A DNA stretch of 64,000 nt from an uncultured Alphaproteobacteria bacterium (GCA_934203105.1 CAKPYQ010000004.1:11336-75335); one strand, 5' to 3'. Positions 13,933 to 64,000 are shown, numbered from the stretch's first letter. The notes: generated by a model from the letters alone, not told the origin. Numbers and translations: made by a program.

Positions 13933-13933
13933 A

Positions 13934-15657: not shown

Positions 15658-15661
15658 AATA

Positions 15662-16375: not shown

Positions 16376-16514
16376 AAGACAATCGCTTTAATTTTTCGGG
16401 GCGACCTTTTATTTGTTTTTATGAAAGGCAGCGTTTTTTTTAAAGCCTATAACCTTTTGTAAAAAGCGTACTTTTAAAAAAATAAATCAACTTTAATCAG
16501 AAAAGGAAAATATT

Positions 16515-17372: not shown

Positions 17373-17440
17373 AAAATAGGTAAAAAAAGAAGGGGGCTTT
17401 TTTTTAAAGTCCCCTTTTTGTTTTAATAAAGGAGAGAAAA

Positions 17441-18010: not shown

Positions 18011-19914
18011 GCAAGTTAATTAACCATAAAACCAACTTTACGTCGGGTGCGGTTTCGTCGGATTTGTTGGGACGAACGGATTTGTCGGCGTATGATAACG
18101 GCGCGATGGAATTAAAAAATATGTTTATCAGCCCGATCGGCGGCATTGAACGGCGCGCCGGCTTGCGCTATGTGGACGCGATAACGGGTGCGGTACGCTT
18201 GATTTCATTTGCGTTTAATACCGAACAAACGTATTTGTGTGTTGTGGGGGATCATTTTATCCGCATTTACAAAAATGAAAGCTTACTTCAAACATTGACG
18301 ACACCATGGAGCGCGCAAGATGTGCCGCAACTGCGTTGGACGCAAAGCGCGGATACATTGTTATTGACGCACCCCGACTATGCGCCCAAAAGCATTACGC
18401 GCCAAAGCAATGAAAGCTTTACCATCAGCGATTGGGTATTTGATACGAACGAGACGGGACAAAAGTTTTGTCCTTATGAAAAATACGCTCCTGCCGCAAT
18501 GACAATGAGCGCGACCGGCGGAGGGTCGGCCGTTACTTTAACGGCGGGCAGCGACTTTTTTACCGCATCGCATATCGGTCGGCATTTTAAAGTAAACGGA
18601 GGTGAGTTTGTTGTTTCGGCAATCACTTCTGCGACCCAAGCAACGGCTACACAAGTATTGGCCGCCAAAGATGCAACGGCTGTGGTCGATTGGGCAGAGG
18701 AAGCTTTTTGTCCCGAACACGGCTATCCGGCGTGCGTGACGTTTTACCAAGGGCGTTTGGTAATCGGCGGTTCGCGTGATTTGCCAAATAAGCTGTGGTT
18801 TTCCAAAAGCTTTGCAATTATGAACTTTGATACGGGGACGGGGTTGGACGATGAAGCAATCGGATTTTCTTTGCTCTCCGATCAAGTCAATGCTATACGC
18901 GGATTGATGTCCGGCCGACATTTGCAGGTTTTTACATCGGGTTCGGAATGGATGGTTTCGGGCGATCCTTTAACTCCTCAAAGCATTCAGTTAAAGCGTC
19001 AAACGCGTATCGGTTCGCCCAGTTATCGTTATGTGCCGCCGGTTGATGTTTCCGGAGCGACTTTGTTTGCGTCCGAAAACGGTTGCGAGGTGCGCGAATT
19101 TTTGTTCGCGGATTTAGAGCAGGCTTATCAAGCCAAAAATGTTTCTCTGTTATCGGGACAGTTGATTAAAAATCCGATTGATATGGACTATGACGCCAAG
19201 CGTCGTTTGGTGTACGTTGTGATGAGTGACGGCAAAATGGCCACCTTGACCAACTATCGATCAGAGGACGTTTTGGCGTGGAGCAGTCACGAAACCGCGG
19301 GCGATTTTTTGTCGGTTTGCGTTTTGGAAGGCGATGTGTATTTTTTAATCAATCGTTCGGGGCAAATTTATTTGGAAACGTTTGATGATGAAGTTTCAAC
19401 GGATTGCGCGTTTTTGGGCGAAGATGAAACGGCTCATCAAACGTGGACGGGCTTGTCGCCTTTGGTCGGTAAAAAAGTGCAAGTGATTGCGGACGGTCGT
19501 TTTGAAATGGAAACAACGTTGCAATCCAGTGCGTTGACGTTGACAAAGTCAGCTTATCATTTGCAGATAGGCTTGCCGTTTACGCATTCGGTGATACCTT
19601 TACCGCCGACGGTGGGATCGTCCGCCGGTAGCTTGCCTTTAAAGGCTGTACGTTTGGTTGAAATTCGTTTTAAAGTCGTTGATACGTCATCGCTTTTTTT
19701 GGATATCGGCAACGGCTATAACGAATTTTTGGTGAAAAAATTAAATGAAAACTATATCTTGGACGCGAAAAATGAAAAGCAAACCTGCGACGTGGTTATT
19801 CACGCGTTGGGTTGGGTGCGCGACGGTGTAACGCCTTTGTGGAAAATGCAAAGCGATATGCCGCAAGCGTGCAAAATAGTTTCCGTGACTTGTGTGATGA
19901 AAGTGAGTGAATAA
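18007..19914 (+). CDS. tail tubular protein B candidate (T7 gp12-like position)
   Basis: It is 635 aa and follows the gp11-like gene. The assignment is by position only. Confidence 0.45.
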   Translation: MSKLINHKTNFTSGAVSSDLLGRTDLSAYDNGAMELKNMFISPIGGIERRAGLRYVDAITGAVRLISFAFNTEQTYLCVVGDHFIRIYKNESLLQTLTTPWSAQDVPQLRWTQSADTLLLTHPDYAPKSITRQSNESFTISDWVFDTNETGQKFCPYEKYAPAAMTMSATGGGSAVTLTAGSDFFTASHIGRHFKVNGGEFVVSAITSATQATATQVLAAKDATAVVDWAEEAFCPEHGYPACVTFYQGRLVIGGSRDLPNKLWFSKSFAIMNFDTGTGLDDEAIGFSLLSDQVNAIRGLMSGRHLQVFTSGSEWMVSGDPLTPQSIQLKRQTRIGSPSYRYVPPVDVSGATLFASENGCEVREFLFADLEQAYQAKNVSLLSGQLIKNPIDMDYDAKRRLVYVVMSDGKMATLTNYRSEDVLAWSSHETAGDFLSVCVLEGDVYFLINRSGQIYLETFDDEVSTDCAFLGEDETAHQTWTGLSPLVGKKVQVIADGRFEMETTLQSSALTLTKSAYHLQIGLPFTHSVIPLPPTVGSSAGSLPLKAVRLVEIRFKVVDTSSLFLDIGNGYNEFLVKKLNENYILDAKNEKQTCDVVIHALGWVRDGVTPLWKMQSDMPQACKIVSVTCVMKVSE

Positions 19915-20248
19915 AATGGCAGCAAAAGAATCTGCTTTGGGCAGTTTGGTTTATGACGCTTTAACGGGTACGCAAAAATCAGAGTTGAAAAATGAGCGGC
20001 AAAAAGCGCTGTTGGAACAACAAAATAACGTTCAAAATTATAAAAAAAGTTTAAGCTCTTACCGCGCCAAAATGGCCGCCGGCGGTGCTGGTGGTATTTC
20101 CGGCGGCGTGGAGGCGGGATTAGAGCAACAGTTGGACGACAAAAATGCGCTTGTTGCGCAAAGCTTTAATCAAAAAGCAAAGCAAAATAAAAATCAAGCA
20201 CGCAAAAAGACGTTGTTAAGTATGGGATTTAATATCGGTGCCGATTAG
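19907..20248 (+). CDS. hypothetical phage protein
   Basis: It is 113 aa, hydrophilic, with a Gly-rich middle section. Confidence 0.35.
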   Translation: MNKMAAKESALGSLVYDALTGTQKSELKNERQKALLEQQNNVQNYKKSLSSYRAKMAAGGAGGISGGVEAGLEQQLDDKNALVAQSFNQKAKQNKNQARKKTLLSMGFNIGAD

Positions 20249-20262
20249 AAAAGAGGGGAAAA

Positions 20263-20556
20263 ATGGCAAAGGAAAAAATACAAAAAGCAAAAGATTTTTT
20301 CTTGGCAACTATCCCCGAAAAATTAACGCAGGCATTAAAAGAATATGATACGTTTTCGGCTCAAAGTGCCCCAATGGATGCCAAATCTTTTGGGGCTTTT
20401 CATATGGCGTGCAAGAGTGCTTTGTCGCATATTGTGCTGTTGATGAAAATGTTGCAGTTGGTCGAAAATGGCGCGCAAGATCAATCCGATACCGATTGGT
20501 TGGCAAAAGCAAAATCAGCAATTTATGAAGCGGAAGATGAAGGGGACGATGAATAA
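20263..20556 (+). CDS. terminase small subunit candidate
   Basis: It is 97 aa with an acidic C-terminus, lies directly upstream of the large terminase and overlaps it. Confidence 0.3.
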   Translation: MAKEKIQKAKDFFLATIPEKLTQALKEYDTFSAQSAPMDAKSFGAFHMACKSALSHIVLLMKMLQLVENGAQDQSDTDWLAKAKSAIYEAEDEGDDE

Positions 20557-22012
20557 AGCAAACTTAATCGAATTTGTTTGGATTTGGGATCAATTGCAAC
20601 AGCTATCCGTTCCGAAACATCACCGCAAAATTTGTCGTTTTTTGGAAAAAAGCTTTTATGCCAAAACGGGGCAAGCGTTGTTGATGGCTTTTCGTAATTC
20701 GGGCAAATCGACGTTGGTCGGCTTGTTTTGTGCGTGGGTTTTATATGTGCGTCCGAATACGCGGATTTTAATTATGTCGGCGGATTATGAGTTGGCCAAA
20801 AAAATGGTTCGTAACGTCAAGCGAATTATCGAACGCCACCCGTTGACGGCTTTTTTAAAGCCAAAGCAAAAAGATCAATGGGCGTCGGATCGCTTTACGG
20901 TTTGCCGAGATTTGGAGTTGCGCGACCCGTCTGTTTTGGCGCGTGGCGTTGGTGCGAATATTACCGGTTGTCGTGCGGATTTGATTGTTTGCGACGATGT
21001 AGAAGTGCCAAAAAATTGTGATACGTCGGGCAAGCGGTTGGATTTGCGCGAACGTTTGTCGGAATTGGATTTTGTTTTGGTGCCAAAAGGTTTGGTTCTT
21101 TACATCGGTACGCCACACACAAAAGAGACAATTTATAATGTGGAAGAGGGCGGCTTTTTAAAGGGCTTTCCGGTTTTAAGGTTGCCGATTTTGGACGACA
21201 AAGGACAAAGCGCTTGGCCTGAACGATTTCCTTTGTGTAAAATCGAAGCGATAAAAAAACGTTCGGGACCGTTGAAGTTTTTAAGTCAAATGCTGTTAAA
21301 GCCCGTCAATTTAAAATCGGGTCGATTAAATGCGGCGGGGGTGGTTTTTTATGATCAAGAATTGCACTATCAGGAAACAAACCAAACGGCCGTGTTGATG
21401 ATCGGCGATAAGCAAATGGTTTCCGGATCTGCTTGGTGGGATCCGGCGTTTGGGGCTGGTACGAAAGGCGATAACAGCGTTTTGGCTTGTGTGTTTTTCG
21501 ATAAAGAGGGACGGGCTTTTTTGCACGATATTACTTACTTAAAAGTCGAACAAGCCGGCAAAGCGGCCGAAATCCAATGTGAAAAAGTGGCGGATTTGAT
21601 TGAAAAATATCATATCCCGCAAATCAGAATTGAAACAAACGGGATCGGTCGTTTTTTGCCCGAATTATTGAAAAATACGTTGCAACGACGGCGGATTGTT
21701 TGCGCTGTATTGCCTGTTCATTCGCACGTTCCAAAGGCGGTGCGAATTACGGAAAGTTTGGACGCGCGGTTGGCAAACGGGTCGTTGCTTTTCCACAATC
21801 GTGTCAAAGAAACGCCGCTGATGGAAGAATTAAATGCTTGGACACCGGAAAACAGCAAAACGCATGATGACGGCTTGGACGCTTTGGCGGGGTGTTTATT
21901 ATCCGAACCCGTGCGTTTTACGCGCTGTGCCAAGCAAACGGTAAAAGCGGGGGCAGATTGGCGCTATGGCGGGCAAATAACAAATTTAAGTTTAGATGAT
22001 GTCACAATTTAA
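20537..22012 (+). CDS. terminase large subunit
   Basis: Walker A FRNSGKST and Walker B-like LIVCDDVE are present. The C-terminal nuclease region is DPAFGAGTKGDNSVLACVFFD. The track ORF starts at 20468, but the ATG at 20537 or 20549 avoids overlap with the upstream gene. Confidence 0.8.
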   Translation: MKGTMNKANLIEFVWIWDQLQQLSVPKHHRKICRFLEKSFYAKTGQALLMAFRNSGKSTLVGLFCAWVLYVRPNTRILIMSADYELAKKMVRNVKRIIERHPLTAFLKPKQKDQWASDRFTVCRDLELRDPSVLARGVGANITGCRADLIVCDDVEVPKNCDTSGKRLDLRERLSELDFVLVPKGLVLYIGTPHTKETIYNVEEGGFLKGFPVLRLPILDDKGQSAWPERFPLCKIEAIKKRSGPLKFLSQMLLKPVNLKSGRLNAAGVVFYDQELHYQETNQTAVLMIGDKQMVSGSAWWDPAFGAGTKGDNSVLACVFFDKEGRAFLHDITYLKVEQAGKAAEIQCEKVADLIEKYHIPQIRIETNGIGRFLPELLKNTLQRRRIVCAVLPVHSHVPKAVRITESLDARLANGSLLFHNRVKETPLMEELNAWTPENSKTHDDGLDALAGCLLSEPVRFTRCAKQTVKAGADWRYGGQITNLSLDDVTI

Positions 22013-22451
22013 AAAAAAGGAGATTATGATGAAGCAGGACTTTTTCAGTGCGTCCGATATTTTGGCGCGCACTTTATACGGCGAAGCACGTTCGGAAGGT
22101 TTGATTGGAATAGAGGCCGTCGCAAACGTGATTTTAAATCGCGTTCGGTTGGCAAAAACGCATCATGTTTGGTGGGGCAATACGGTCGAGGAGGTTTGTT
22201 TAAAACCGTTTCAATTTTCGTGTTGGATCCCGTCGGATAAAAACTTTTATCATTTAATACGCGCCGATGAAAGGGATCCGACTTTTCGACTGTGTCAACG
22301 TGTTGCTGTGCGCGCTTTGACGGGATTTTTGCCGGATATAACTCACGGCGCAACACATTATCATTCAAAGCAGGTCAGTCCCGCTTGGGCGCGGAAATTA
22401 ACGCCTGTTTACGAATACGGTAATCATTTATTTTACAGGGAGATATCTTAA
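21996..22451 (+). CDS. cell wall hydrolase, SleB family (endolysin)
   Basis: The YGEARSEG...AVANVILNR...HYH pattern of the SleB/CwlJ hydrolase family is present. The protein is 151 aa and sits at the head of a lysis cassette. Confidence 0.7.
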   Translation: MMSQFKKKEIMMKQDFFSASDILARTLYGEARSEGLIGIEAVANVILNRVRLAKTHHVWWGNTVEEVCLKPFQFSCWIPSDKNFYHLIRADERDPTFRLCQRVAVRALTGFLPDITHGATHYHSKQVSPAWARKLTPVYEYGNHLFYREIS

Positions 22452-22453
22452 AA

Positions 22454-22741
22454 ATGGCTTCATTTGATTTGCAAATCGGTAAATTGATGGCGCAGTTTGA
22501 CAGCTTGCAAAGTCGTATAGACGACGTGCGCAAAGGTATGGATAACACGAACCGTCAGTTGGCCAAATGGCACGGGGAATTTGAAACATTCGCCGGTGAC
22601 ATTATGGAAAAAATGGAAAAGCGTTTCATTTTGCGTTCGGAAATAGCGCCGATCAAAGCCGCTTTGTCGGTGGTGTTGGTGGCAACCGTCAGCGCGATTT
22701 GTATCAGCTTATCCGAATTGTTTTTTAAACGTTTATTTTAA
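22454..22741 (+). CDS. membrane protein, holin/antiholin candidate
   Basis: It is 95 aa with a C-terminal TM segment (AALSVVLVATVSAICISL) and lies in the lysis cassette. Confidence 0.3.
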   Translation: MASFDLQIGKLMAQFDSLQSRIDDVRKGMDNTNRQLAKWHGEFETFAGDIMEKMEKRFILRSEIAPIKAALSVVLVATVSAICISLSELFFKRLF

Positions 22742-27276: not shown

Positions 27277-27732
27277 TTATCCCAACAAAGATTTGATCAA
27301 TCCGGAAGCTTTTCCAAAATCCATTTGACCGGCATATTTTGCGCGCAGAGCGCCCATAACTTTGCCCATATCTTTCATGGAAGCGGCGCCCGTTTCTTTG
27401 ATAACAGCTTCGATTGCGGCCTTGACAGCGTCATCGTCCATTTGTGCCGGCAAGAAAGAGGATATAATTTCAATTTCCTTTTTTTCTTTTTCTGCCAAAT
27501 CAGCACGTCCGCCTTTTTCATACAAATCAACGCTTTCGCGGCGTTGCTTGATCATCGATTGAAACATCGACAAGATTTCATCATCGCTGATCCCGTCGGT
27601 TTTGCCGGCCGGCCGAGCCGCAATATCTTTGTCTTTTAATGTTGCGCCGATCATACGCAAAGTTGAAACTTTCGCTTCATCTTTTGCTTTCATTGCGGCA
27701 ACTAATTCAGCTTTAATTTGTTCTCTTAACAT
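27277..27732 (-). CDS. yqeY: GatB/YqeY domain protein
   Basis: It has the typical 151-aa YqeY fold sequence (LKDKDIAARPAGK...). It lies upstream of dnaG-rpoD. Confidence 0.85.
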   Translation of the reverse strand: MLREQIKAELVAAMKAKDEAKVSTLRMIGATLKDKDIAARPAGKTDGISDDEILSMFQSMIKQRRESVDLYEKGGRADLAEKEKKEIEIISSFLPAQMDDDAVKAAIEAVIKETGAASMKDMGKVMGALRAKYAGQMDFGKASGLIKSLLG

Positions 27733-27940
27733 TTTATAATCTCCTGAATATTTAAATAAATAAGTACTGTTTTTTATTTTTCAAGTCAAAAACGGATAAA
27801 ATTATAATGTCACAGTTTAGCATATCTTTCAAGTGCAAAAATCATAAAGAGGTATATTTTTTTTAAAAAAAGCTTTTACAGGGGTGTTTTGGTGCTTATT
27901 TGTTTTTTGAAAACTTTTTTTAAAAAAAACGGGGGCATAA

Positions 27941-29263
27941 ATGCACAAAAAATCTTTATTATTTAAAACAGTTTCTTTTGCGGCTTTGGGACTTGGCTTG
28001 TTTGCCGTCAGCGCGTTTTGTGAAACGGCGCCCTTAAAAGCCGATGCCGGTTTTAAATCGGCCGTTGTTTCAACGGGGTCTGATATGGGACGCAAAGAAA
28101 AAATGACGCTTGTCTCGCCGGGACAAAAAAGCGTTCACCGTCGTTTACAAAAACAATCCGACGTTCAAAAGCAAACAACGCCGGAAAGCTTTGATAAACT
28201 CTATTCGGACTTTAAAAAATCGTTAAATGACGCGATCGGATTATCTTATACTTTCGATGTGTCTGTTTTGGGGCAACGCGGCGCGCCAAACGGCAAAGGA
28301 ACAGCTTGGCAAACGCAATATTACGGTTCCGCAAACTGGGATATGTATTCATCACGGTTTGGGTCGGGATCTTTACAAGCAGCCTATACCTATGTTCATT
28401 ATTGGGGCAAAAGCGCAGAGCGAATCGGAAATAATATCGGCGTTGTCAATGATATCAATGATTACAGCTCTAACGCCTATTACTTTGATCAATTAAGCTA
28501 TACACATCAATTTGACGGGGTGATGAAACCGTTGTCCGTTACAATCGGTCAATTTCCGATGTACACATTCGACGGATCAGAATATGACGCAAACCAACAA
28601 ATCAACTTTATCAATTACGCGTTGTCGCAAAACGGATCATCCAGCTATCCCAGCGCCGGCTTGGGCGGCTTTATCACTTTGACGCCGAATGATCAGTTCA
28701 GCTTTACTGTCGGTATGCAGGATGCCAACAACATATCAGGATCGAAAATCCAAACGTCGACGCTTCATCGCAAACAATTTACCAGCTTTGCATCTGTCAG
28801 CTATACGCCGACAATTAAAGGCTTGGGAGCGGGGCAATATTCTGTGATGATTTATAATCAACCGTGGACGATCGAGCAACCGGATACCAGCAACGGGTGG
28901 TCGTTTAACTTGTCGCAAGATTTGAATGATAAGTTGACGGTTTTCGGCCGAATTAACGGATCGACGGGCAATGTTGAAACAATCAAACAATCGTATGTTT
29001 TGGGTGGCGTTGTCAATAACCCGTTTGAACGTAACGCTTTGGATCAAATCGGTTTTGCGGCGGCCGTCAACAAAATCAATAAAGAAGTCGCCGGCGGGAA
29101 CCCCCGATCGGTTGAAACGGTTTTGGAAGGTTATTTGTCTGTTGGAGTATCGAATTATTTAATTTTAACGCCGGACGTTCAATTTTATATCAATCCGGCG
29201 TCCGATAAGGATAACAGCCATACCGCAACAGTTGTCAGTATGCGCGCAACATTGATGTTCTGA
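27941..29263 (+). CDS. outer-membrane beta-barrel porin (OprB-like candidate)
   Basis: A signal peptide is present. Alternating-residue beta-strands run throughout. The C-terminal residue is Phe (ATLMF), typical of OMPs. Confidence 0.55.
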   Translation: MHKKSLLFKTVSFAALGLGLFAVSAFCETAPLKADAGFKSAVVSTGSDMGRKEKMTLVSPGQKSVHRRLQKQSDVQKQTTPESFDKLYSDFKKSLNDAIGLSYTFDVSVLGQRGAPNGKGTAWQTQYYGSANWDMYSSRFGSGSLQAAYTYVHYWGKSAERIGNNIGVVNDINDYSSNAYYFDQLSYTHQFDGVMKPLSVTIGQFPMYTFDGSEYDANQQINFINYALSQNGSSSYPSAGLGGFITLTPNDQFSFTVGMQDANNISGSKIQTSTLHRKQFTSFASVSYTPTIKGLGAGQYSVMIYNQPWTIEQPDTSNGWSFNLSQDLNDKLTVFGRINGSTGNVETIKQSYVLGGVVNNPFERNALDQIGFAAAVNKINKEVAGGNPRSVETVLEGYLSVGVSNYLILTPDVQFYINPASDKDNSHTATVVSMRATLMF

Positions 29264-29287: not shown

Positions 29288-29334
29288 AAAACGCCCGTTT
29301 TTTTAAGTTTAACTTGCGGGCGTTTCGTTTTTAT
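29288..29334. terminator. bidirectional terminator between porin and pilin-like genes
   Basis: The stem AACGCCCG / CGGGCGTT is followed by a T-run. Confidence 0.35.
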
Positions 29335-31649
29335 TGGCACATCAGGTAAGCATTCGCCATTTGTCCCAATGAATGATAGTAGCCACATCCTGGTAGGAGC
29401 ATCGAGCCCCCGCTGAATATGTTTCCCGAGCGTTGGGCACAGATGGAGTTGATTGTCTTTGACTGGCACATGTCGTCAACGGGGTCGGCAGCAGCATACG
29501 CGCTGGATATGAAAATTTGCGATAAAAATTCAAGCATTTGAATGGATGCGCTTTGGCTGCAAATCGTCGGAATCTTGACCGTTGATTTGCCTATGGCGGC
29601 ACAGAAATTGGCTGAATTATCTACAAAATAATTGACATAAAAGTTTGAAATTTTACTGATGTAATATCCTTCGATTATATCATATTCGGCGCTGGCGCAA
29701 TATCTGTCGCTTTCATGGATGCTGGGTTGATAACAGAATAACTTTTCACCGCAATCGTCATTTGTCGAGCATGTGGTTTGACTGCACTTTGATCCATTCC
29801 ATGTCGGATTATCGGACGGACACGAAGAACAATAATCGCCGACGGTACATGCGACACATTTGTTGTTTTCTAATATATAACCGGCATTACAGCTGATTGT
29901 TGTGCCGTCACAGGTTGCATTCGCCGGACAAACAAATTGGCATGCTGTTCCGTCCCAAACTGAATCGATGTCCTCGCACGTCGGGCAAGTTTGTCCTACT
30001 GTACAGGCTGTACAGCTTGAAGCGCCTTGCACGGAGGTGTATGTGCCAACCGGACAGGGCGTGCATGCGGTGATTTTTCCGCCGGCGCTGTAAGTATTTT
30101 CCGGACACGCGAAGCATGCCGATTGTCCCGTTGACGGATTGTATGTGCCGGCCGGACAGTCGGAGCATGTTGCATCACCGGCATTGCTGAAAGTACCCGC
30201 CGGACATTGAGAACAAGCCGTTGCACCGGTGCCGGCGCCGATCGTTCCTGCCGGGCATATCGTACAACTTACCGCACCCGTTTGGTTGTTATAATAACCG
30301 TTTGCGCATAATTCGCAACCGTTTGTCATTGATGCACTTCTGTATGAGCCGATCGGACAGGCGGTGCAGGAAGTCGCTCCGCTTGATGCACTCCAATGAC
30401 CGGCGGGGCAACTTTCGCAGCCCGTTGATCCGCTCGACGCATTAAATGTGCCGACAGGACAAGCTTTGCACGATCTTTGACCTTCGATGTCTGTATATTG
30501 GCCGGCGGGGCAGGCTACACATTCCAACCCGTCATTATAATAACCGGCGTTACAAATTTCTGTGCTGGGGGGTAAACACGCGGTTTTAGAGCTGTTTAAT
30601 AAATAGCCGTCATCGCAAGTAAAATTCGATCCGTCACAGGTTGCATTTGCGGGGCAAGCGTTGCACGCAGAGCCGTTCCAAAATTGCGTTGACTTGTCAC
30701 AACAAGAGGTAATGCCGTTTGATGCAGTGTGTTTTTGATAGCCCGTTTTGCAAACAACAGATCCACCGTCACAGGTTGCATTAGCAGGGCATTCCGTGCA
30801 TTGGCTGTCTGCCCAATATTCGGAAGCAGAACAGCATGTGTTTCCGGCGTGCAAAGCTGATCCGTTTAAACAACCGACGATTTTTTCGCCTTGGCAGATA
30901 ACGCCACTGGGGCAGTCATAGCATCCGTCTTGCTCAACAAAGTATTGGTTGGACGAGCAACATTCGACATAAGCCGAACCGGGCGTTTCATCTTCACCGA
31001 TGACGTGCGGATTGCCCGACGGACAATAAAAGCATGTATCATTGATTCGGTCGTATGCATTCGGATAATGACAGCAATCAGCCCCTTGACACCCGTCGGA
31101 CGGTAAGTCGGGGACGCTGGGGATTGTTGTATTATCGCCTGAACCCGTGCCGGCGTAATAATTATATCCGTCGAATTTTTGCGTGCTTGCTTTGATCACA
31201 AAGGATACATCAGCCATTTGATCCGAACAAGTCGTTTGACCGACAGAGCCGACATAAACTTCATCGATGCTTTTTGTTTGGGCAACAGCATCAATTAAAG
31301 CGTCGCACAGTTCTGCATTTGTATTTTTAAAAGTTAAGATAATTGCGGATTTTCCTTTTGAGGTTTGGCCAAGCTCTCTGACCCATGTGCGACCGGTTGT
31401 GTTTTTAAATGATAAGTTGATGGTTTTGCCGTCGCTTTTTGTCGGGATATAGCGCCAAGAGGATATTAAACCGGCTTGGGTTAACGCTTCGTCGATAATG
31501 GCGGTCGTTTGATACGATTCTTTTGCGCTTCTTAATCCGACCAACGCGCCGATTGTCAGCATGCCGATAACGGCCAATACTGCCAACATTTCAATCATCG
31601 AACGCCCCGTATAGCGCCTCCGTATTTTGTAAAAACAATTTTTTTGCAT
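29331..31649 (-). CDS. type IV pilin-like protein with large Cys-rich ephrin-receptor-like (GCC2/GCC3-type) repeat ectodomain
   Basis: The N-terminus GRSMIEMLAVLAVIGMLTIGAL matches the prepilin cleavage/methylation motif (G|xxxxE plus a hydrophobic helix). The C-terminal ~600 aa carry more than 70 Cys in repeated C-x2-CPAG-x-Y/F...G-x3-C units. Confidence 0.6.
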   Translation of the reverse strand: MQKNCFYKIRRRYTGRSMIEMLAVLAVIGMLTIGALVGLRSAKESYQTTAIIDEALTQAGLISSWRYIPTKSDGKTINLSFKNTTGRTWVRELGQTSKGKSAIILTFKNTNAELCDALIDAVAQTKSIDEVYVGSVGQTTCSDQMADVSFVIKASTQKFDGYNYYAGTGSGDNTTIPSVPDLPSDGCQGADCCHYPNAYDRINDTCFYCPSGNPHVIGEDETPGSAYVECCSSNQYFVEQDGCYDCPSGVICQGEKIVGCLNGSALHAGNTCCSASEYWADSQCTECPANATCDGGSVVCKTGYQKHTASNGITSCCDKSTQFWNGSACNACPANATCDGSNFTCDDGYLLNSSKTACLPPSTEICNAGYYNDGLECVACPAGQYTDIEGQRSCKACPVGTFNASSGSTGCESCPAGHWSASSGATSCTACPIGSYRSASMTNGCELCANGYYNNQTGAVSCTICPAGTIGAGTGATACSQCPAGTFSNAGDATCSDCPAGTYNPSTGQSACFACPENTYSAGGKITACTPCPVGTYTSVQGASSCTACTVGQTCPTCEDIDSVWDGTACQFVCPANATCDGTTISCNAGYILENNKCVACTVGDYCSSCPSDNPTWNGSKCSQTTCSTNDDCGEKLFCYQPSIHESDRYCASAEYDIIEGYYISKISNFYVNYFVDNSANFCAAIGKSTVKIPTICSQSASIQMLEFLSQIFISSAYAAADPVDDMCQSKTINSICAQRSGNIFSGGSMLLPGCGYYHSLGQMANAYLMCQ

Positions 31650-31742
31650 TATCTGCCCAACCTTTTTTTGTTATTTGCTGCGTTAATTTTAAACGAAACA
31701 AGCTTTTATTGTCAAGAATGTTTTTTTATTTGATAAATATTC

Positions 31743-34851: not shown

Positions 34852-34928
34852 CGGGGCGTAGCTCAGCCTGGTAGAGTACTTGGTTTGGGACCAAGGTGTC
34901 GCATGTTCGAATCATGTCGCCCCGACCA
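34852..34928 (+). tRNA. tRNA-Pro (anticodon TGG), CCA encoded
   Basis: The 7-bp acceptor stem is CGGGGCG/CGCCCCG. The D-loop AGCCTGGTAGAG is present. The anticodon stem-loop is CTTGG-TTTGGGA-CCAAG and the T-loop is GTTCGAATC. Confidence 0.9.
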
Positions 34929-35419: not shown

Positions 35420-37246
35420 ATGGCAGACGATATTCAAATTCAAAAAATGGACGGCAAGAGTTTGGATGTGGCAGAAACTGATAAGGAACGCTTAAAAGCC
35501 GTCTTTCCGCAGTGTTTTGTTGAGGGCAAACTGGATATTGATAAGCTGTTGTCGCTGTGTGGCGAATATATCGACAATGATTTTGAAAAGTATAAGTTTG
35601 AATGGAAAGGCAAATCCGAGTGTCTGCGCATTGCCGGTAAGCGTTCAACCGGAACACTCCGTCCTTGTCCGGAAGAGAGCGTGGACTTTGATAATACCAA
35701 GAATCTGTATATAGAGGGGGATAATTTGGAAGTTTTGAAACTCCTGCAAACGGCGTATTATCGCAAAGTGAAGATGATTTACATTGATCCGCCATATAAT
35801 ACCGGCAATGACTTTGTTTATGAAGATGATTTTAAAGATCCGCTGACAAAATATAAAGAAATAACCAGTCAAACCACCAAATCCAACCCCGAAACAATGG
35901 GACGTTATCACACCAACTGGCTGAACATGATGTATCCCCGCTTGCGATTGGCATCAAACTTACTCCGTGATGACGGTGTTATTTTCATGAGTATTGACGA
36001 TAATGAAGTAACCAACCTCCGCCGTCTGTGCGATGAAGTGTTCGGGGAAGAAAATTTTGTTGCAGACTTTTTGTGGAAGAAAAAAAGCACAACTACAAAT
36101 GTTGAAGGTGTTACTGTGAGTGCTTTGACAGAACATATTCTGTGCTATAAAAAAGCTGACAAAGGAATAAATAATCGTGTAGTATCTAAGGAAGAACGTT
36201 CTTATCCTTTTTCTGATGAGCTTGGAAATTATAGAAAAACAATTATCGAAAAGAAAAATGAGGGTTCTTACGCAAGAAAAACAATGGAATTTCCAATTAT
36301 TGGACACAAACCTCGAGAAGGTAAAAGATGGCAGATTGGGGAAGAAAAAGCAAGAGCTTTAGAAAAATTAAACCGTTTTATTTATGAAGATGGCATTGTA
36401 AAATTAAAAATTTATGATTTTGAAGATAAAGATACAACGTCTGCGTATCCTAATTTATTGTTTGAACATGGCTCTACTGATAGTGCAACAAAAGATTTAA
36501 AAGAACTGTTAGGAGGTAATTATTTCGATAATCCTAAACCTATCCAGTTGATTAAACAGTTGGTCGTCTATACTGATACAGATGACAAAGACCATATAAT
36601 TCTCGACTTTTTCTCAGGCTCTGCAACTACGGCTCATGCAGTTATGCAATTAAATGCCGAAGATGGTGGCAAACGTCAGTTCATCATGGTGCAACTTCCG
36701 GAATTAACTGACGAAAAATCCGAGGCATTTAAAGCTGGGTATAAAAATATTTGCGAAATCGGTAAGGAGCGCATCCGCCGTGCCGGTGCTAAAATCAAAG
36801 AACAAAACACCAATGTGGATGTTGGCTTTAAGGTTTTGAAACTTGATACTTCAAATCTTAATAAATGGGATGATACACCGCTTGCCAGCACCGAAACCGC
36901 TGATTTATTCGCTCGTATGAACGGTATGATTGAGAGTATCAAAAAAGGTCGCTCTGAACTTGATGTCGTTTATGAAGTTATGTTGAAACTTGGTGTTCCG
37001 GTTACAGAAAAAGTTTTTGAAAAACAAGTCAACGGCCGTAAAGTTTATTCAATCGGTGATGACAGTTTGATTTTGGTTTGCTTGGATAAATCAAATGGCG
37101 GTATTACACCGGAAGATATTTCGGCTATGTGCGAACTGCCCCCCGCGAAAATCGTTGCCTCCGAAGAAGCCTTTAAGGACGATGTAGCCCTCTCAAACGC
37201 TTATTATATAAGCAAAGACAGCGGTGTGGAAATTATGTTGCTGTAG
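35420..37246 (+). CDS. mod: type III restriction-modification methyltransferase (Mod), N6-adenine beta-class
   Basis: Motif IV DPPYNTG precedes motif I DFFSGSATT. That order is the beta-class arrangement typical of Mod. The protein is 608 aa. Confidence 0.85.
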   Translation: MADDIQIQKMDGKSLDVAETDKERLKAVFPQCFVEGKLDIDKLLSLCGEYIDNDFEKYKFEWKGKSECLRIAGKRSTGTLRPCPEESVDFDNTKNLYIEGDNLEVLKLLQTAYYRKVKMIYIDPPYNTGNDFVYEDDFKDPLTKYKEITSQTTKSNPETMGRYHTNWLNMMYPRLRLASNLLRDDGVIFMSIDDNEVTNLRRLCDEVFGEENFVADFLWKKKSTTTNVEGVTVSALTEHILCYKKADKGINNRVVSKEERSYPFSDELGNYRKTIIEKKNEGSYARKTMEFPIIGHKPREGKRWQIGEEKARALEKLNRFIYEDGIVKLKIYDFEDKDTTSAYPNLLFEHGSTDSATKDLKELLGGNYFDNPKPIQLIKQLVVYTDTDDKDHIILDFFSGSATTAHAVMQLNAEDGGKRQFIMVQLPELTDEKSEAFKAGYKNICEIGKERIRRAGAKIKEQNTNVDVGFKVLKLDTSNLNKWDDTPLASTETADLFARMNGMIESIKKGRSELDVVYEVMLKLGVPVTEKVFEKQVNGRKVYSIGDDSLILVCLDKSNGGITPEDISAMCELPPAKIVASEEAFKDDVALSNAYYISKDSGVEIMLL

Positions 37247-37252
37247 AGGTGG

Positions 37253-37996
37253 ATGATGTGTGATTTTTATGATTTTATTGATAAAATATTGAACATTTTT
37301 TCTTCTCTGTATAAATCCAATGGATTGGAGACTTTGATTTCAACGTTTTTGGGTGCTTGCTTTGCATACCTCTTTAATTTAAAGCAACAAAAGAAAAAGG
37401 AAAAATCAGATAAGGAAGAAAAAAGGAAACAAACCGAAAATGAAAATTTTTCAAAATTGACATATTTATATGTTTATATGGATATTATTTTATCATGTGC
37501 TATAAATACATTAAATTTTTCAAAAAAACAAATAGAAAAATATGATAAATTTTTAAGTTCAAAAGCAACACATGCGAGTGGTGAAATATTAGCCTCAGCA
37601 TTGAATTCATTTCGCGGTATAAAATTTAATTATAATGATTTTTTCTTCACGGCAAAAGAAACTTCCTTTTTGGTTCAACTAGCAACTGTGAATTATTATA
37701 TTCAAACATTATTTGAAAAAATTGAATATTTTAATAAGAATATTGAAATCAATTTTCATAAAGTACCAGTGGTAACAAATGTTAATCTGGTCAACTCCTG
37801 TAAAAAAAATATGCTTTCTATACAAAATAGTGTATATTATCTTTTATTAGCTATAGATAAAATGAAAGCGGAAATCTTAAATTTTAATCAAACATATTTG
37901 ATGCGACCGTTAATCGAAAATCCCGGGAATGAAGAAATAAAAAAGATTTTACAAGAAGCTTATGATTTTTATAAATTAAATGAGGTAACTCAATGA
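37253..37996 (+). CDS. hypothetical protein inserted between mod and res
   Basis: It is 247 aa, very AT-rich and Lys/Asn-rich, with one predicted TM near the N-terminus. It is translationally coupled to res by an ATGA overlap. Confidence 0.4.
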   Translation: MMCDFYDFIDKILNIFSSLYKSNGLETLISTFLGACFAYLFNLKQQKKKEKSDKEEKRKQTENENFSKLTYLYVYMDIILSCAINTLNFSKKQIEKYDKFLSSKATHASGEILASALNSFRGIKFNYNDFFFTAKETSFLVQLATVNYYIQTLFEKIEYFNKNIEINFHKVPVVTNVNLVNSCKKNMLSIQNSVYYLLLAIDKMKAEILNFNQTYLMRPLIENPGNEEIKKILQEAYDFYKLNEVTQ

Positions 37997-40900
37997 AACT
38001 AAAGTTTAAAAATCAAGAGTTCCAGACTGATGCCGTGAATGCGGCTGTAGAATTGTTCAAAGGTCAAGAAAAAGCCAACATGACCTTTTCAATCGCTGAC
38101 AATTCTGCACAAGCTTCTTTCCTGCAAAATGAATTCGGTATCGGGAACAAACTGGTGTTGGATGAAGAGACAATAAACAGCAATCTTCATGCCATCCAAA
38201 AGGCTCATTCCCTGCCACAAACTGATATTGATAGTATAAAGGCCGTGCCACTTTCAATTGAGATGGAGACCGGAACCGGTAAAACTTTCGTTTATACCAA
38301 AACCATTTTAGAGCTTAACCACCGTTATGGCTTTACAAAATTCATTATTGTTGTTCCGAGTGTGGCAATCCGTGAGGGTGTTAATAAATCATTCCAGGTA
38401 ACTGAAGAATACTTCAAAAATCAATATGATGGTGTGCCATACCGGTACTTTATTTATAATTCAGCCAAACTGTCGGATGTTCGGGCGTTTGCGACTTCCA
38501 GTAATATCGAGATTATGATTATCAACATTGACGCTTTCAAAAAGGCCGAAAACATTATCAATCAAGAACAAGATAAACTGGGCGGCGAAACCGCTATGCG
38601 TTATATTCAGGATACAAATCCGGTTGTCATTATTGATGAACCGCAAAGCGTTGATAATACCGCTAAAGCCAAAGAAGCTATCGCGATGCTTAATCCGCTG
38701 TGTGTTTTGCGCTATTCCGCTACCCACCGCGAAAAACAAAACCTTGTTTATCGCTTAACGCCGGTTGATGCATATCAAATGGGATTAGTAAAACAAATTT
38801 GCGTTATTTCAAATTCGGTTATCAATGATTCAAATAAACCCTATATCGCCTTAAAAGACGTTTCAAACGCCAATGGTTTTTCGGCCAAATTGGAAATTGA
38901 TGTGGAAGACGATAATGCCCATATTACCCGTAAGGTAATAACAGTTAAACCGGACGATGATCTGTTTATTAAATCCGGCCATCGCAAAATTTATGAAGGC
39001 TATGTTGTTTCAGGTATTGATTGCACCAAAGGCTTTGAAGGCGTTGAGTTTGCTAATTCGGAGTATGTTGCCCTTGGAAAATCTATCGGAAGCGTTGATG
39101 AAAAAGTATTAAAACGTGCACAAATTTATCAGACCATTAAAACACATCTTGATAAAGAATTACGCTACTTTGATATGGGGATTAAAGTGCTGTCCTTGTT
39201 CTTCATAGATGAGGTAAAAAAATACCGGACCGAGGATGGTGGCAAAGGTATTTATGCCCAAATGTTTGAAGAATGCTATAACGAGCTGATCAATAAGCCT
39301 AAATACGCCATTTTGAAAACAAAGTTTGATACAGACGTTAATAAGGCCCATAACGGTTACTTCTCTCAGGATAAAAAAGGGAAATATAAGGATACCAAGG
39401 GCGACACGCAGGCCGATGATGACACTTATAACACGATTATGAAAGATAAAGAATGGCTGTTGTCGTTTGAATGTCCGCTCCGCTTTATCTTCTCGCACTC
39501 GGCGTTAAAAGAAGGTTGGGATAACCCAAACGTCTTTCAGGTTTGCACGTTGATTGAGCAAAAATCTCTGTTTACCTGCCGTCAGAAGATCGGTCGTGGT
39601 TTAAGACTTTGTGTAAATCAAGACGGCGAACGCGTTGAGGATAAGAACATCAATGTTCTGCACGTGATCGCCAACGAAAGTTTTGCCGAATTTGCCGATA
39701 AGCTGCAAAAAGAAATTGAAGATGAGACCGGTGTTAAATTTGGCGTATTTGAATTGGATATGCTTGTCGGATACTCTTATGATGAAGAAGTGGAAGTTGA
39801 ACGTACAATCAGCGAAAGTGAAGCCACCGCTATTGTTGAAGATTTGCAAAAACATGGTTTAATTGATGATGGCGGTTATATTAAACCAGAAGTTAAGCCA
39901 GAAGAAATTAAAATCGAAAATATCCCGATGCCTGAACCTGTAAAAACACATGTTCAAGATATGATCAAAACTTCAAAGCCAGTGTCAGTTGCCGCGCTTG
40001 CTAATACAACATATAAAGAAACTGTTGTTGAGAAAAAGACATTCTCGTATGAGGAAGCCGCCGCAATTATGGATGAGCTAAAGGATAAAAAGGTCATTGA
40101 TAGCAAGAACAAAATTAAAGACACGATGAAAGCACAGCTCGCCGCTGGTACACTTAATCTGAGTGAGAGATGGTCAAAAGCCGCACAACGTGCAATTTTA
40201 CAATCTATGAATAAGGCTGATAACAAACTCAATATCCGAGATGCTTCAAAAGATGTAACGGTAAAACTTAATAAACGCGCGCTATTATCGCCTGAATTTA
40301 TGGAACTTTGGAATAAGATAAAGCAAAAGACCACTTATCGTGTCCAGTTTGATTTGGATAAACTAATTGCCGACAGTATCAAAGATATTCGCGAAATGCC
40401 GGAGATCACCTCGGCGCGTTTACTCAGTCAGACGGCCTCTGTTAATATTCAAAAATCCGGTGTGACGGCTCAGGCTGGTGCAATGTTTACTCAAAACATC
40501 GAAAAGAGCTATGATATTCTGCCGGATATTTTGCGTTTAATTTCTACCAAAACATTACTGAAACGCTCTACCGTGAATAAAATCATTCAGGAAAGTGGCC
40601 GGGCCGGAGACTTTTTGAAAAATCCGCAAGACTTTTACGAAAAGGTTTTGGAGATTATCCAGCGCAATCGTCATAAATTAGCTATTGATGGAATTAAGTA
40701 TATCAAATTGGCCGGCGAAGAATATGCCGTACAAGAGATTTTCTCAAGTGAAGAATTGATTGCAAACCTTGATCGGAATGCTGTCGCAGTTAAAAACAGC
40801 GTGTATGATTATGTTATTTATGACAGTAGCACGGTTGAAAAGCCATTCGCCGTGGCTTTGGACGAGGATCCTGACGTTAAGATATTCTTCAAAATTCCGA

Positions 40901-41145
40901 GCCGATTTAAGATTGACACACCGATTGGCACTTATAATCCGGACTGGGCGGTCTATTTAGAGAAAAATGGCGAGCAGAAGCTTTATTTTGTGCTTGAAAC
41001 CAAAGGAACTGATTCGTTCTATGGCCTACGTCCGGAAGAGCAACAGAAGATCCATTGCGGTGCACAGCACTTTAAGGCTCTTGATAATGTTATCTACTCC
41101 GAACAACCGGTCAGAAATTGGCAAGAATTCAAAAAGACGGTGTAG
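37993..41145 (+). CDS. res: type III restriction endonuclease Res subunit (SF2 helicase + PD-(D/E)xK nuclease)
   Basis: Helicase motif I METGTGKTF and motif II IIDEPQS are present. The C-terminal nuclease motif is YNPDWAVYLEKNGEQKLYFVLETKG. The protein is 1050 aa. Confidence 0.85.
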   Translation: MKLKFKNQEFQTDAVNAAVELFKGQEKANMTFSIADNSAQASFLQNEFGIGNKLVLDEETINSNLHAIQKAHSLPQTDIDSIKAVPLSIEMETGTGKTFVYTKTILELNHRYGFTKFIIVVPSVAIREGVNKSFQVTEEYFKNQYDGVPYRYFIYNSAKLSDVRAFATSSNIEIMIINIDAFKKAENIINQEQDKLGGETAMRYIQDTNPVVIIDEPQSVDNTAKAKEAIAMLNPLCVLRYSATHREKQNLVYRLTPVDAYQMGLVKQICVISNSVINDSNKPYIALKDVSNANGFSAKLEIDVEDDNAHITRKVITVKPDDDLFIKSGHRKIYEGYVVSGIDCTKGFEGVEFANSEYVALGKSIGSVDEKVLKRAQIYQTIKTHLDKELRYFDMGIKVLSLFFIDEVKKYRTEDGGKGIYAQMFEECYNELINKPKYAILKTKFDTDVNKAHNGYFSQDKKGKYKDTKGDTQADDDTYNTIMKDKEWLLSFECPLRFIFSHSALKEGWDNPNVFQVCTLIEQKSLFTCRQKIGRGLRLCVNQDGERVEDKNINVLHVIANESFAEFADKLQKEIEDETGVKFGVFELDMLVGYSYDEEVEVERTISESEATAIVEDLQKHGLIDDGGYIKPEVKPEEIKIENIPMPEPVKTHVQDMIKTSKPVSVAALANTTYKETVVEKKTFSYEEAAAIMDELKDKKVIDSKNKIKDTMKAQLAAGTLNLSERWSKAAQRAILQSMNKADNKLNIRDASKDVTVKLNKRALLSPEFMELWNKIKQKTTYRVQFDLDKLIADSIKDIREMPEITSARLLSQTASVNIQKSGVTAQAGAMFTQNIEKSYDILPDILRLISTKTLLKRSTVNKIIQESGRAGDFLKNPQDFYEKVLEIIQRNRHKLAIDGIKYIKLAGEEYAVQEIFSSEELIANLDRNAVAVKNSVYDYVIYDSSTVEKPFAVALDEDPDVKIFFKIPSRFKIDTPIGTYNPDWAVYLEKNGEQKLYFVLETKGTDSFYGLRPEEQQKIHCGAQHFKALDNVIYSEQPVRNWQEFKKTV

Positions 41146-41148
41146 ATT

Positions 41149-62587: not shown

Positions 62588-64000
62588 TTATAAAGCTAAA
62601 GCGTTACAAACTCCGTTTATATTTCTTTGATTTGGCGCACAGCAAAGCTCGCCGACCTTTAATAAATTGTCCGGAAAATCACTTGCTGTAATGACTTTAT
62701 AGTGTGCGGAACTGGTGGCATTTTCCGGTTTTGTGTCACAAATGCAAGTATCCGTAACTGCCTTGCCATACGGACATTTTTTCTTTTGCACGCCCGTGCT
62801 TGTCAAACAGTTTTCATTCGTTGTGTCGACGCTCATACTGGCGCAAAAACCGGGAGCGCACATTTCATCGGTAAATGAAGCGCATTTTTGCCAATCATAG
62901 TTGGTGCATGCCGAGCCACAAGCTTCGCCATTATATCTGCAATAGCTGGCGTTTGAAAGCAAATAGCACTCCATGTTGTTTGCCAAATCAACGCAACCAA
63001 AGCCGAAAGTGCTGTCGATATATTTCCATTCGGTGCCATTCGGGCAGACATTTTTGCATAATCCGTTTTCACAAATTTGATCTGCGCCAAATTGAGAACA
63101 AGAGTATCCGCACATATTGCCGCTGGCGACAGAGCCGATATAGCAAGTTGTCTTGTCTCCGCTCAGATCACAAATTAAGTTACCTTTTTGGCAATAGTGG
63201 CCGGTATCATCTTGTGTAAAGCCGTCCGGACAGTAATTGGTGCAAGTTCCACATCCGGCCGGCGTTTCTGGATCACACATTTGAGTCCCGCTGTAACATT
63301 CGGAACTTCCTTTATAGCAGAGCCAACCTTTTGCGCTGTCAGCTATACAGCTGATGCCGTAAGTTTCATTGTGGCAACCCATATAATATTGGTCTTTGAT
63401 TGTTTCATAATCCCAACCGCTGGGACAATTTTTAAAGCAAGATCCACGAATGCAATCGAATTTTTGTGTGCCTGAGTTATATTCGGCTATGCAACACATT
63501 TGGTCGCTGTTTTTTTCTTTGCAACGGTATACGTCCTTAAAACCGTCATCTTCCTCGGCGTAAAAACAACTTAAAATGTAGTCAGAACATTGCCCATATT
63601 CGGTGTTACTTGACCAACCGGTTGTTCCCGGACAGTCTGTGGTGCAATCAGCCATACCATTACAGCAATTTCCATATCGACATTCTGTCCCCGTGGAATT
63701 ACACAATTCACCACAAGGGTGTTTTTGCTCTCCAATAGAGCATTTAAATGCCGGCTCACCGTCCCAAAATCCTGCCGGTGTACAGGTTAGTTTTTCACAT
63801 TTATTCTCATTAACCAGTACATAACCGTCATCACATACTTTCGGCGACGGGGTTCCCCCTATTTTGAAAACAACAGTATTGTTGCCTTTTTGGCATTCGA
63901 CGGAAGCATCATCAACCAATATCGATGTGAAAAGCGGGTGCGTTTGATTGTCCCTTAAAACCAATTTATCGCAAACGCCCTTTGTAATGTTTTCGGCAAA
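62588..64000 (-). CDS. Cys-rich secreted/surface protein (partial; N-terminus probably beyond window end)
   Basis: At least 458 aa with ~60 Cys in irregular C-x-C and CxxGxxC spacing (CPDGFTQDDTGHYC, CPNGTEW...). The minus-strand frame stays open to the window edge. Confidence 0.5.
   Translation of the reverse strand, partial: FAENITKGVCDKLVLRDNQTHPLFTSILVDDASVECQKGNNTVVFKIGGTPSPKVCDDGYVLVNENKCEKLTCTPAGFWDGEPAFKCSIGEQKHPCGELCNSTGTECRYGNCCNGMADCTTDCPGTTGWSSNTEYGQCSDYILSCFYAEEDDGFKDVYRCKEKNSDQMCCIAEYNSGTQKFDCIRGSCFKNCPSGWDYETIKDQYYMGCHNETYGISCIADSAKGWLCYKGSSECYSGTQMCDPETPAGCGTCTNYCPDGFTQDDTGHYCQKGNLICDLSGDKTTCYIGSVASGNMCGYSCSQFGADQICENGLCKNVCPNGTEWKYIDSTFGFGCVDLANNMECYLLSNASYCRYNGEACGSACTNYDWQKCASFTDEMCAPGFCASMSVDTTNENCLTSTGVQKKKCPYGKAVTDTCICDTKPENATSSAHYKVITASDFPDNLLKVGELCCAPNQRNINGVCNALAL

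Follow-up and report, generated by a model that had tools for sequence, protein, structure and literature searches.

Introduction

Type IV pilins in which a pilin module is joined to a domain that is not specific to pili have been established experimentally for PilB (vWA module) and PilC (lectin module) of S. sanguinis and for CofB of enterotoxigenic E. coli (ETEC) (PMC8179133), and more than 1,200 such modular pilins in 264 architectures have been counted (Raynaud et al. 2021, PMC8179133). Here we analyze a gene that appears to follow this design, in a 64,000-nucleotide stretch of DNA from an uncultured Alphaproteobacteria bacterium (GCA_934203105.1, CAKPYQ010000004.1:11336-75335; this whole stretch is hereafter called the window). 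The gene is a 772-aa open reading frame (ORF) with an ATG start at 29331..31649 on the minus strand, recovered in the ORF listing of the window at exactly the coordinates given in an earlier note made from the sequence alone. We think it probable, though by a good deal short of certain, that it encodes a modular type IV pilin-like adhesin.

In its overall layout, the protein agrees with the modular pilins just described. If the pilin assignment is accepted, the protein likewise combines a pilin module (aa 16-155) and a linker (aa 156-186) with a part that is not specific to pili, and in both cases the bulky module is predicted to be adhesive and is presumed to be displayed at the tip. What sets it apart is the motif, the type and length of the graft, the absence of an operon, and the expansion into paralogs. 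The putative mature protein has Arg at +1, in a motif that falls under the IPR012902/PF07963 thresholds used to find modular pilins; the graft is much longer (~590 aa, 68 Cys) and combines eukaryote-type Ephrin_rec_like sequence with a terminal, probably lectin-like domain; and the gene lies outside any pilus operon, in a family with many paralogs per genome, in small genomes.

Several other proteins bear comparison. In the large minor pilins ETEC CofB, V. cholerae TcpB, and R64/Salmonella PilV, the C-terminal domains set binding, and the present protein would be similar in this respect, although the beta-repeat and beta-sandwich domains of CofB are unrelated to its own. Alternative C-terminal segments of R64 PilV are exchanged by DNA rearrangement (a shufflon). 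The C-terminal module is also the differing part of our protein, by way of recombination between strains, but here the variation is seen from strain to strain, and the window revealed neither a shufflon nor an invertase or silent cassettes. Invasin and intimin use a rigid stalk of repeated modules to present a terminal binding domain that resembles a C-type-lectin-like domain (CTLD), a stalk-plus-CTLD layout similar to the one considered here, where the CTLD assignment is tentative; however, they have an outer-membrane beta-barrel anchor (type Ve secretion) and an Ig-like stalk, whereas our protein has a pilin module and a Cys-rich stalk, and there is no sequence relationship. The Cys-rich part itself shows the same CxxCPxGxY/F...C periodicity as the Tetrahymena GCC2/GCC3 proteins and ELAPOR1. 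Eukaryotic Ephrin_rec_like proteins carry a signal peptide and a transmembrane anchor, whereas this protein is bacterial and has a pilin module instead.

An N-terminal module shared by a large protein family

The protein begins with MQKNCFYKIRRRYTG, a basic 15-residue leader ending in Gly, followed by RSMIEMLAVLAVIGMLTIGALVG, which has Glu at +5 and a run of ~20 hydrophobic residues; the putative cleavage junction lies between the leader's Gly and RSMIEMLAVLAVIGML. A six-frame scan of the window found no other such motif in a complete ORF. When aa 1-186 were used as the query of an exhaustive HMMER search of 1.84 billion representatives (E<=1e-3), at least 322 representatives matched, with alignments that often spanned about residues 10-180 and at most 10-181; a word-indexed search with the same query returned a single match, P0135 (151 aa), which carries PilS_N. 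The pattern G[RK]S[ML][VI]EM... is present in 146 of the 150 family representatives listed, and the near-invariant family motif can be written GRSM[VI]EMLGVLAIIGVLS, its commonest form being GRSMVEMLGVLAIIGVLS after a short hydrophilic leader. Those 150 representatives range from 68 to 746 aa and many are Cys-rich; some members of the family exceed 1000 aa, and others are pilin-sized (~125-150 aa when mature).

An alignment of 34 family members (hereafter A1) bears on what this module is. Throughout the alignment, Gly-1, Arg+1, Glu+5, three helix residues, and two cysteines (C115 and C141 in our protein) are invariant, and its shortest sequences stop a few residues past the second of these cysteines, which gives them the size of an ordinary pilin. 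Against PDB sequences, the A1 profile gave 18 matches at E<=1, 17 of them type IV pilins or pseudopilins; these include the fimbrial protein 8tob (E 1.4e-4), PilA (9laa), PilE, TcpA, CofA, geopilin, and PpdD, and the pilin matches span E 1e-4 to 0.8. In the register of the alignment GRSMVEM equals GFTLIEL, so that the junction of Gly with Arg coincides with the Gly-Phe junction of PilA and PpdD. Comparison of the family profile by hhalign gave 78% for E. coli PpdD and 62% (E 7.6e-5) for the E. coli major pseudopilin GspG. Individual members also reach the Pfam models: P0137 lies above the N_methyl cut-off (23.0 vs 21.2 bits), 6 of the 34 score at E<0.01, and one of the 34, P0135, matches PilS_N (PF08805; E 4.5e-7), a likeness to type IVb pilins in which our protein, with no PF08805 match at E<=1, does not share.

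The AlphaFold2 (AF2) model of the N-terminal part, computed with A1, has a mean predicted local distance difference test (pLDDT) score of 85 and a predicted template modeling (pTM) score of 0.71. It consists of a 49-residue helix (residues 11-59 of the trimmed sequence, with block pLDDT values of 91-97 declining to ~90) followed by a four-strand sheet and one helix. Taking together the PDB matches of the A1 profile, the hhalign comparison with PpdD, the lollipop architecture of the AF2 model, the two invariant cysteines, and the presence of a prepilin peptidase in the clade (described below), we consider the N-terminal 150 residues to be best explained as a type IV pilin module, in which C115 and C141 may form a D-region-like disulfide. 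Our reading is that of a divergent type IV pilin subclass that keeps Gly-1, Glu+5, and Gly+14- and Tyr+24-like positions, with support at the level of the family and no single decisive test.

Assignment to the Flp/Tad (type IVc) pilins was considered and rejected: position +6 is Met rather than Tyr, most mature family members are at least 125 aa long with a globular head, and the Pfam scan of our protein at E<=1 returned no Flp match.

Distribution of the family among gut Alphaproteobacteria

To describe the carriers, we scanned one genome per GTDB species with two conserved peptides, which yielded at least 550 confirmed matches, and characterized the best 80. Nearly all of these 80 are metagenome-assembled genomes (MAGs) of uncultured gut Alphaproteobacteria from humans (Hadza, Nepal), ruminants, and rabbits; one is labeled Candidatus Enterousia, and the few bins with other labels are probably mis-binned. 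As judged from these searches, our protein is one member of a large, lineage-specific family that is essentially confined to gut Alphaproteobacteria MAGs, and the intracellular bacterium envisaged by the earlier note finds no support in what is seen of the carriers. Neither the literature nor Pfam, NCBIfam, or database names yielded a description, model, or name for the family.

Copy number within a genome can be high. The MAG CAKQRZ has at least 18 family genes in six loci (~120 kb sampled), and the MAG SIG53 at least 11, seven of which encode proteins of 650-980 aa with 64-80 Cys. The genes are scattered amid housekeeping genes: clustering of 1,599 ORFs from 80 related loci revealed no systematically co-located gene family, and the recurrent neighbors were housekeeping genes for an ABC transporter, ArgRS, OmpA, Ffh, and others. 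For Rs-D84, a genome survey gives sizes of 671-1,611 kb and reports the lack of flagella, the tricarboxylic acid cycle, and respiration (PMC12306168).

We also observed shared sequence upstream of the paralogs in CAKQRZ. A block of ~90 nt is conserved in at least 8 of the 18 (loci L009, L013, L027, L041, L066, and L084; e.g. L013:16638-17489); it encodes the leader MTGGRGANFF and contains an inverted repeat, CCTAGGC-N17-GCCTAGG, that ends at the ATG, with a predicted RNA hairpin of -38.5 kcal/mol (z -2.4) that encloses the start codon. A second upstream type, present in four copies in the same MAG, reads TTCTTGGG-N5-CCCAAGAA before the ATG and gives no significant fold. The CAKQRZ-type element, which is absent 5' of the window's gene, might control translation of these genes in common or serve as a substrate for recombination.

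A cysteine-rich stalk of eukaryotic type

All but one of the protein's 71 cysteines lie past the putative cleavage site, and a disulfide-rich stalk of ~440 residues is placed between the linker and the terminal module. Nine exact CxxC[P/A/T]xGx[Y/F/W] units occur between residues 377 and 606, together with three CPANATCDG units. Five stretches match Ephrin_rec_like (PF07699; 96.8 bits, cut-off 23.1, E 6.2e-28), in agreement with the precomputed Pfam annotation of the identical database protein P0001, and TNFR_ELAPOR1_6th (PF23091) is matched at 40.6 vs 33.2 bits. The eukaryote-like Cys-rich ectodomain of the earlier note is thereby borne out as an Ephrin_rec_like/GCC2_GCC3-type array above the Pfam threshold; its "dozens" of repeats were an overcount, the true figure being about a dozen CxxC units.

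The Cys-rich part comes closest to surface proteins, eukaryotic or eukaryote-like, of Branchiostoma, Chlamydomonas, Tetrahymena (GCC2/GCC3), and Macrostomum; the identities are 30-38%, and the matches cover 20-55% of the query. Ephrin_rec_like has been viewed as a eukaryotic domain, its rare bacterial occurrences being put down to horizontal gene transfer (PMC6993872). The fusion seen here is not confined to one protein: P0021 and P0082 also join a GRSM N-terminus to an Ephrin_rec_like array, and P0021 has, in addition, the module type of Cys-rich region A (Table 1).

Replacement of the C-terminal module between strains

The Cys framework of the last part of the protein (aa 627-772), and its motif ...(M)NWWSAxNWCxAQGK...YALCE, also occur at the C-terminus of ~20 other family members. 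When a profile of these ~20 related modules was compared with the PDB, 19 of 22 matches were C-type lectin domains, the best being CLEC4F (E 0.0068). The AF2 model of the module is of low confidence (pLDDT 57); its top 50 Foldseek matches are nearly all CTLDs, at non-significant scores (E>=0.4, TM ~0.3). From the profile and the model, we regard a divergent C-type-lectin-like fold as likely.

Variation between strains is concentrated at this end of the protein. In pairwise comparisons among 14 near-identical homologues, diversity was 0.00-0.025 over residues 1-550 and 0.10-0.31 over residues 551-772; Cys-rich region B alone showed 0.13, compared with at most 0.02 upstream, and a synonymous divergence (dS) of 0.40. 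We compared the window's allele with that of ERZ27287381; at the DNA level, the OprB and murJ genes on either side share 99% identity between the two. Codons 1-560 have a dS of 0.05 and a ratio of nonsynonymous divergence (dN) to dS of 0.18, and codons 561-772 have a dS of 0.66; within the C-terminal module dS is 0.63-1.3, the highest value being that of the last 54 codons. Over residues 1-560, dN/dS values of 0.09-0.39 indicate purifying selection. Because synonymous and nonsynonymous divergence increase together, we conclude that the distal ~210 residues have been replaced by recombination with a diverged copy. A tblastn search with four C-terminal variants found no second copy in the window or the related loci.

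Two other sources of the diversity were considered and rejected. Positive selection does not account for a dS that rises 13-fold along with dN. For targeting of the CTLD-like tip by a diversity-generating retroelement, no template repeat was found in the window and no reverse transcriptase domain among the annotated neighbors, and the saturated synonymous sites indicate cassette replacement rather than adenine mutagenesis.

One member, at L051:9734-11351, appears to be split: a 385-aa pilin-like Cys-rich ORF is followed, in another frame and with a short overlap, by a 159-aa ORF that carries the MNWWS... C-type-lectin-like module. The split reflects either a frameshift in the gene or an error in sequencing.

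Table 1. Coordinates and properties of features assigned to the gene, its upstream region, and its paralog at the window end
Feature	Position	Strand	Remarks
Sigma-70-like promoter site, TTGACA-18-TAAAAT	31686..31715	-	11/12 consensus matches; ~37 nt 5' of ATG
Putative class III leader peptide, aa 1-15 (MQKNCFYKIRRRYTG)	31605..31649	-	Ends in Gly invariant in A1; cleavage predicted
Alpha-1 helix of putative pilin module, aa 16-64 (RSMIEMLAVLAVIGMLTIGALVG...)	31458..31604	-	Glu at +5; AF2 helix; family motif; PDB pilin matches
Globular head of putative pilin module, aa 65-155	31185..31457	-	AF2: four beta strands and one helix; C115, C141
Low-complexity linker, aa 156-186 (STQKFDGYNYYAGTGSGDNTTIPSVPDLPSDG)	31092..31184	-	Sequence; AF2 pLDDT drops to 57-59
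Cys-rich region A, aa 187-365	30555..31091	-	Two CPANATCDG...C..GY modules (positions 287, 332)
Ephrin_rec_like/TNFR-like array, aa 366-560	29970..30554	-	About ten CxxC-P/A-x-G-x-Y/F units, 17-residue period; PF07699, PF23091
Cys-rich region B, aa 561-626	29772..29969	-	Third CPANATCDG module; strain divergence begins here
C-terminal module, aa 627-772	29334..29771	-	Probable divergent C-type-lectin-like domain; strain-hypervariable, last 54 aa most
Second Cys-rich GRSM-pilin-like gene, paralog	62588..64000	-	Open to window edge, 5' end cut off

Recurrence and genomic setting of the gene

The identical protein, P0001, is recorded in NCBI, ENA, and Logan assemblies; the same protein occurs in at least 13 independent assemblies from several samples, and its 90% cluster has 15 members of 772-774 aa. 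In all contigs examined the gene is flanked by an OprB-family porin gene and murJ, and its GC content is about that of the adjoining genes. The presence of an identical protein in all three collections and the constant position between OprB and MurJ establish it as a genuine bacterial gene, neither an assembly nor a contamination artifact. No tandem DNA repeats were found within it. In a full-length homology search, the end-to-end matches came only from its own 90% cluster, and the remaining matches cover the Cys-rich part only. The sigma-70-like site upstream (Table 1) is a consensus match only, and the region has no more of these sites than expected from shuffled sequence.

Prepilin peptidase and assembly genes

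We searched for pilus machinery with motifs and with E. coli HofB, HofC, and GspD, E, F, L, M, and O as queries, covering 1.2 Mb of related loci at ~20 kb per genome. A Peptidase_A24 gene is present at locus L051 (54.7 vs 26.5 bits), 7 kb from a family gene. Its homologues form at least 165 clusters of 217-265 aa, mostly 226-236 aa, one of which is named "prepilin peptidase [Alphaproteobacteria bacterium]". The protease domain is the only Pfam match of the short (226-236 aa) enzyme, from which we judge the clade's A24 peptidase to be probably non-methylating; this would make the Arg at +1 less surprising. Another carrier MAG encodes a 317-aa ATPase of the PilT/ComGA/GspE superfamily. Of the machinery of type IV pili or type II secretion systems (T2SSs), which the earlier note had proposed to look for elsewhere in the genome, the related loci yielded one ATPase and one A24 peptidase, and neither a platform protein nor a secretin.

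In two related species, the A24 peptidase gene adjoins yqeY-dnaG-rpoD (L087:7403-8687 and L092:9431-10687), and is followed by rodZ-prfA-prmC. The window has the same yqeY junction at 27277-29263, but with the OprB porin gene and the pilin-like gene in the peptidase's place. Since the neighbors of yqeY differ between the window and these two relatives, a rearrangement breakpoint lies exactly at the window's yqeY junction.

We note that a VirD4/TraG-type coupling protein (T4SS-DNA_transf) is encoded at L092:19371-20687 and L093:14717-16033, 9 kb from the prepilin peptidase in a related species, which indicates that conjugative type IV secretion genes exist in the clade.

Proposed model and alternatives

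In the model that we favor, the clade's A24 prepilin peptidase would cleave the protein after Gly15, and the alpha-1 helix and head would dock into a type IV filament made mainly of one small family member. Like other bulky pilins of the modular or minor kind, the protein would most likely sit at the filament's tip. With the rigid Cys-rich stalk holding it at a distance from the cell, the terminal lectin-like module might bind a ligand on another cell, whether on host epithelium or mucus, on a gut protist, or on some other microbe. The many paralogs with different C-terminal modules, along with recombinational exchange of tips, would amount to a set of interchangeable adhesive tips on one scaffold. 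Attachment is probably the use to which these proteins are put.

A number of observations weigh against this model. Our protein misses the cut-offs of both N_methyl (PF07963; 13.6 vs 21.2 bits) and TIGR02532 (9.9 vs 16.3 bits). Its Arg at +1 and Met at +3 break the PROSITE pattern PS00409, which needs a hydrophobic residue (F/Y/L/I/V/M) at +1, and to our knowledge no characterized pilin begins with Arg. A Foldseek search of the PDB with the N-terminal model found nothing significant: the best match (E 0.03) is unrelated, the top matches (gyrase, kinases) are spurious, and S. Typhi PilS (3fhu) ranks 38th at E 0.26. At the other end of the protein, Pfam recognizes no family in the C-terminal 148 aa, and the lectin-like assignment of the tip comes from weak, non-significant matches. 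As for the machinery, the window has other genes in the place that the peptidase occupies next to yqeY in its relatives; neither the window nor its 78-kb contig contains an A24 peptidase, nor does that contig contain pilus genes; and the window and the 14 kb beyond it yielded neither an assembly ATPase nor a platform protein or secretin. No GspF/PilC platform protein or secretin was found in the 1.2 Mb of related loci either; with ~20 kb sampled per genome, only about one match would be expected by chance for each single-copy gene, and a count of zero is therefore uninformative rather than negative. Finally, the Rs-D84 survey mentions type IV pili for another lineage only (PMC12306168).

These results bear on two claims of the earlier note, whose interpretation is supported in part. 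It had named as a refutation an N-terminus that pilin HMMs (hidden Markov models) fail to recognize and that is only a signal anchor, and the N_methyl and TIGR02532 models do not recognize this one at their cut-offs; only the family-level evidence (the A1 profile, the hhalign comparison with PpdD, the AF2 model, and the invariant cysteines) rescues the pilin assignment. The note had also taken the prepilin-peptidase motif to imply assembly into a pilus or pseudopilus, a step that can be put only conditionally given the lack of an ATPase, platform, or secretin gene in the window and the 14 kb beyond.

Many of the same points can be accommodated by a different explanation, to which we assign a minor but appreciable likelihood: that the protein resides in the envelope, anchored in the membrane or released by a peptidase, and never polymerizes. 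Its N-terminus would be an export and anchor signal, perhaps trimmed by the A24 peptidase. The protein would then belong to a lineage-specific sorting system, with its Cys-rich domain either periplasmic or located on the cell body. Such a protein would be consistent with the window, its flanks, and the 1.2 Mb of related loci yielding no platform or secretin gene, with a survey that does not report type IV pili in Rs-D84 (PMC12306168), with scores below the pilin HMM cut-offs, with the atypical Arg at +1, and with the at least 18 paralogs in six loci of one MAG, far above the usual handful of minor pilins per system. However, a mere anchor would have no need of the whole pilin-sized domain that is conserved with its Cys pair, Gly-1, and Glu+5, and the A1 profile matches pilins nearly exclusively. 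The pilin-sized members (~125-150 aa when mature) could supply a major subunit, a PilT/ComGA-like ATPase is present in a carrier MAG, and seventy cysteines and adhesin-type modules fit better outside the cell.

Less likely still is a role in a type II secretion-like system, of which the protein would be a pseudopilin-like component or a substrate, forming or capping a short periplasmic pseudopilus from which the Cys-rich part is pushed out or shed. The hhalign result with GspG (62%, E 7.6e-5) and the presence of PpdD and other T2SS-related pilins among the PDB matches point in this direction, and large minor pseudopilins such as GspK are known (PMC8179133). However, GspD, F, L, and M had no homologues in any of the sequence searched, T2SS sets comprise five pseudopilins rather than dozens, and a variable adhesin-like tip that is exchanged between strains indicates an external ligand. 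An artifact, either eukaryotic DNA joined to a bacterial contig by mis-assembly or a pseudogene in decay, is suggested by the gene's eukaryotic or eukaryote-like best Cys-rich matches (Branchiostoma, Chlamydomonas, Tetrahymena, Macrostomum) but effectively refuted by the intact 772-774-aa ORF between OprB and MurJ in independent assemblies from several samples, by purifying selection over residues 1-560 (dN/dS 0.09-0.39), and by the promoter-like site upstream and a GC content similar to that of its neighbors.

Returning to the modular pilin-like adhesin, a bolder extension of that model is conceivable, which we offer tentatively and think doubtful as a whole: that the GRSMVEMLGVLAIIGVLS proteins with Arg+1 are an undescribed type IV pilin subclass expanded into dozens of interchangeable eukaryote-like tips (Ephrin_rec_like, EGF-like, and C-type-lectin-like modules), whose distal modules are shuffled by recombination to give a programmable attachment apparatus in genome-reduced Rs-D84/Enterousia-like lineages. 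This apparatus would be key to living as epibionts or parasites of host cells, gut protists, or other microbes, and its machinery would be minimal, scattered, and unannotated.

The carriers are common in human, ruminant, and rabbit guts, have small genomes, and have never been cultured, and there is no known way in which they interact with partners. A family of exchangeable adhesive tips, occupying a visible share of the carrier genomes, would be the first concrete handle on what these Alphaproteobacteria attach to. It would also widen the sequence space of pilins, with Arg at +1 and a probably non-methylating peptidase, and would add eukaryote-type Cys-rich and lectin-like modules to the modular pilin catalogue. 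As the family has neither a Pfam or NCBIfam model nor a name, thousands of its proteins are at present "hypothetical".

Other features of the window

The second Cys-rich protein that the earlier note had seen at the window end is real and is a paralog of the protein described above (Table 1). The part within the window is 94% identical to residues 106-573 of P0170, whose N-terminus, ...PPPPTGRSMIEMLAVLAMIAILTVG, has the same GRSMIEML motif. A PcfJ-like domain, from a family associated with conjugative plasmids, is encoded by a 744-aa ORF at 59535-61769, just upstream of this paralog.

Between the two pilin-like genes, a tRNA-Pro(TGG) gene at 34852-34928 is followed by a low-GC (0.28-0.40) stretch from 35420 to ~59000 that resembles a genomic island. 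Its first part (35420-43251) encodes an N6/N4 DNA methylase, a ResIII/RE_endonuc helicase-nuclease, and an SNF2 helicase; three radical-SAM/SPASM genes then surround a class I tRNA-synthetase-like gene (44472-49472), and a run of NUDIX, small P-loop kinase, and acetyltransferase genes comes after them. On the other side of the gene, at ~11900-22500, a podovirus-like prophage or remnant adjoins the rpoD-dnaG region, with genes for S24/LexA-type repressors, a head-tail connector, a T7-type capsid and scaffold, Terminase_6C, and an SleB-like cell-wall hydrolase.

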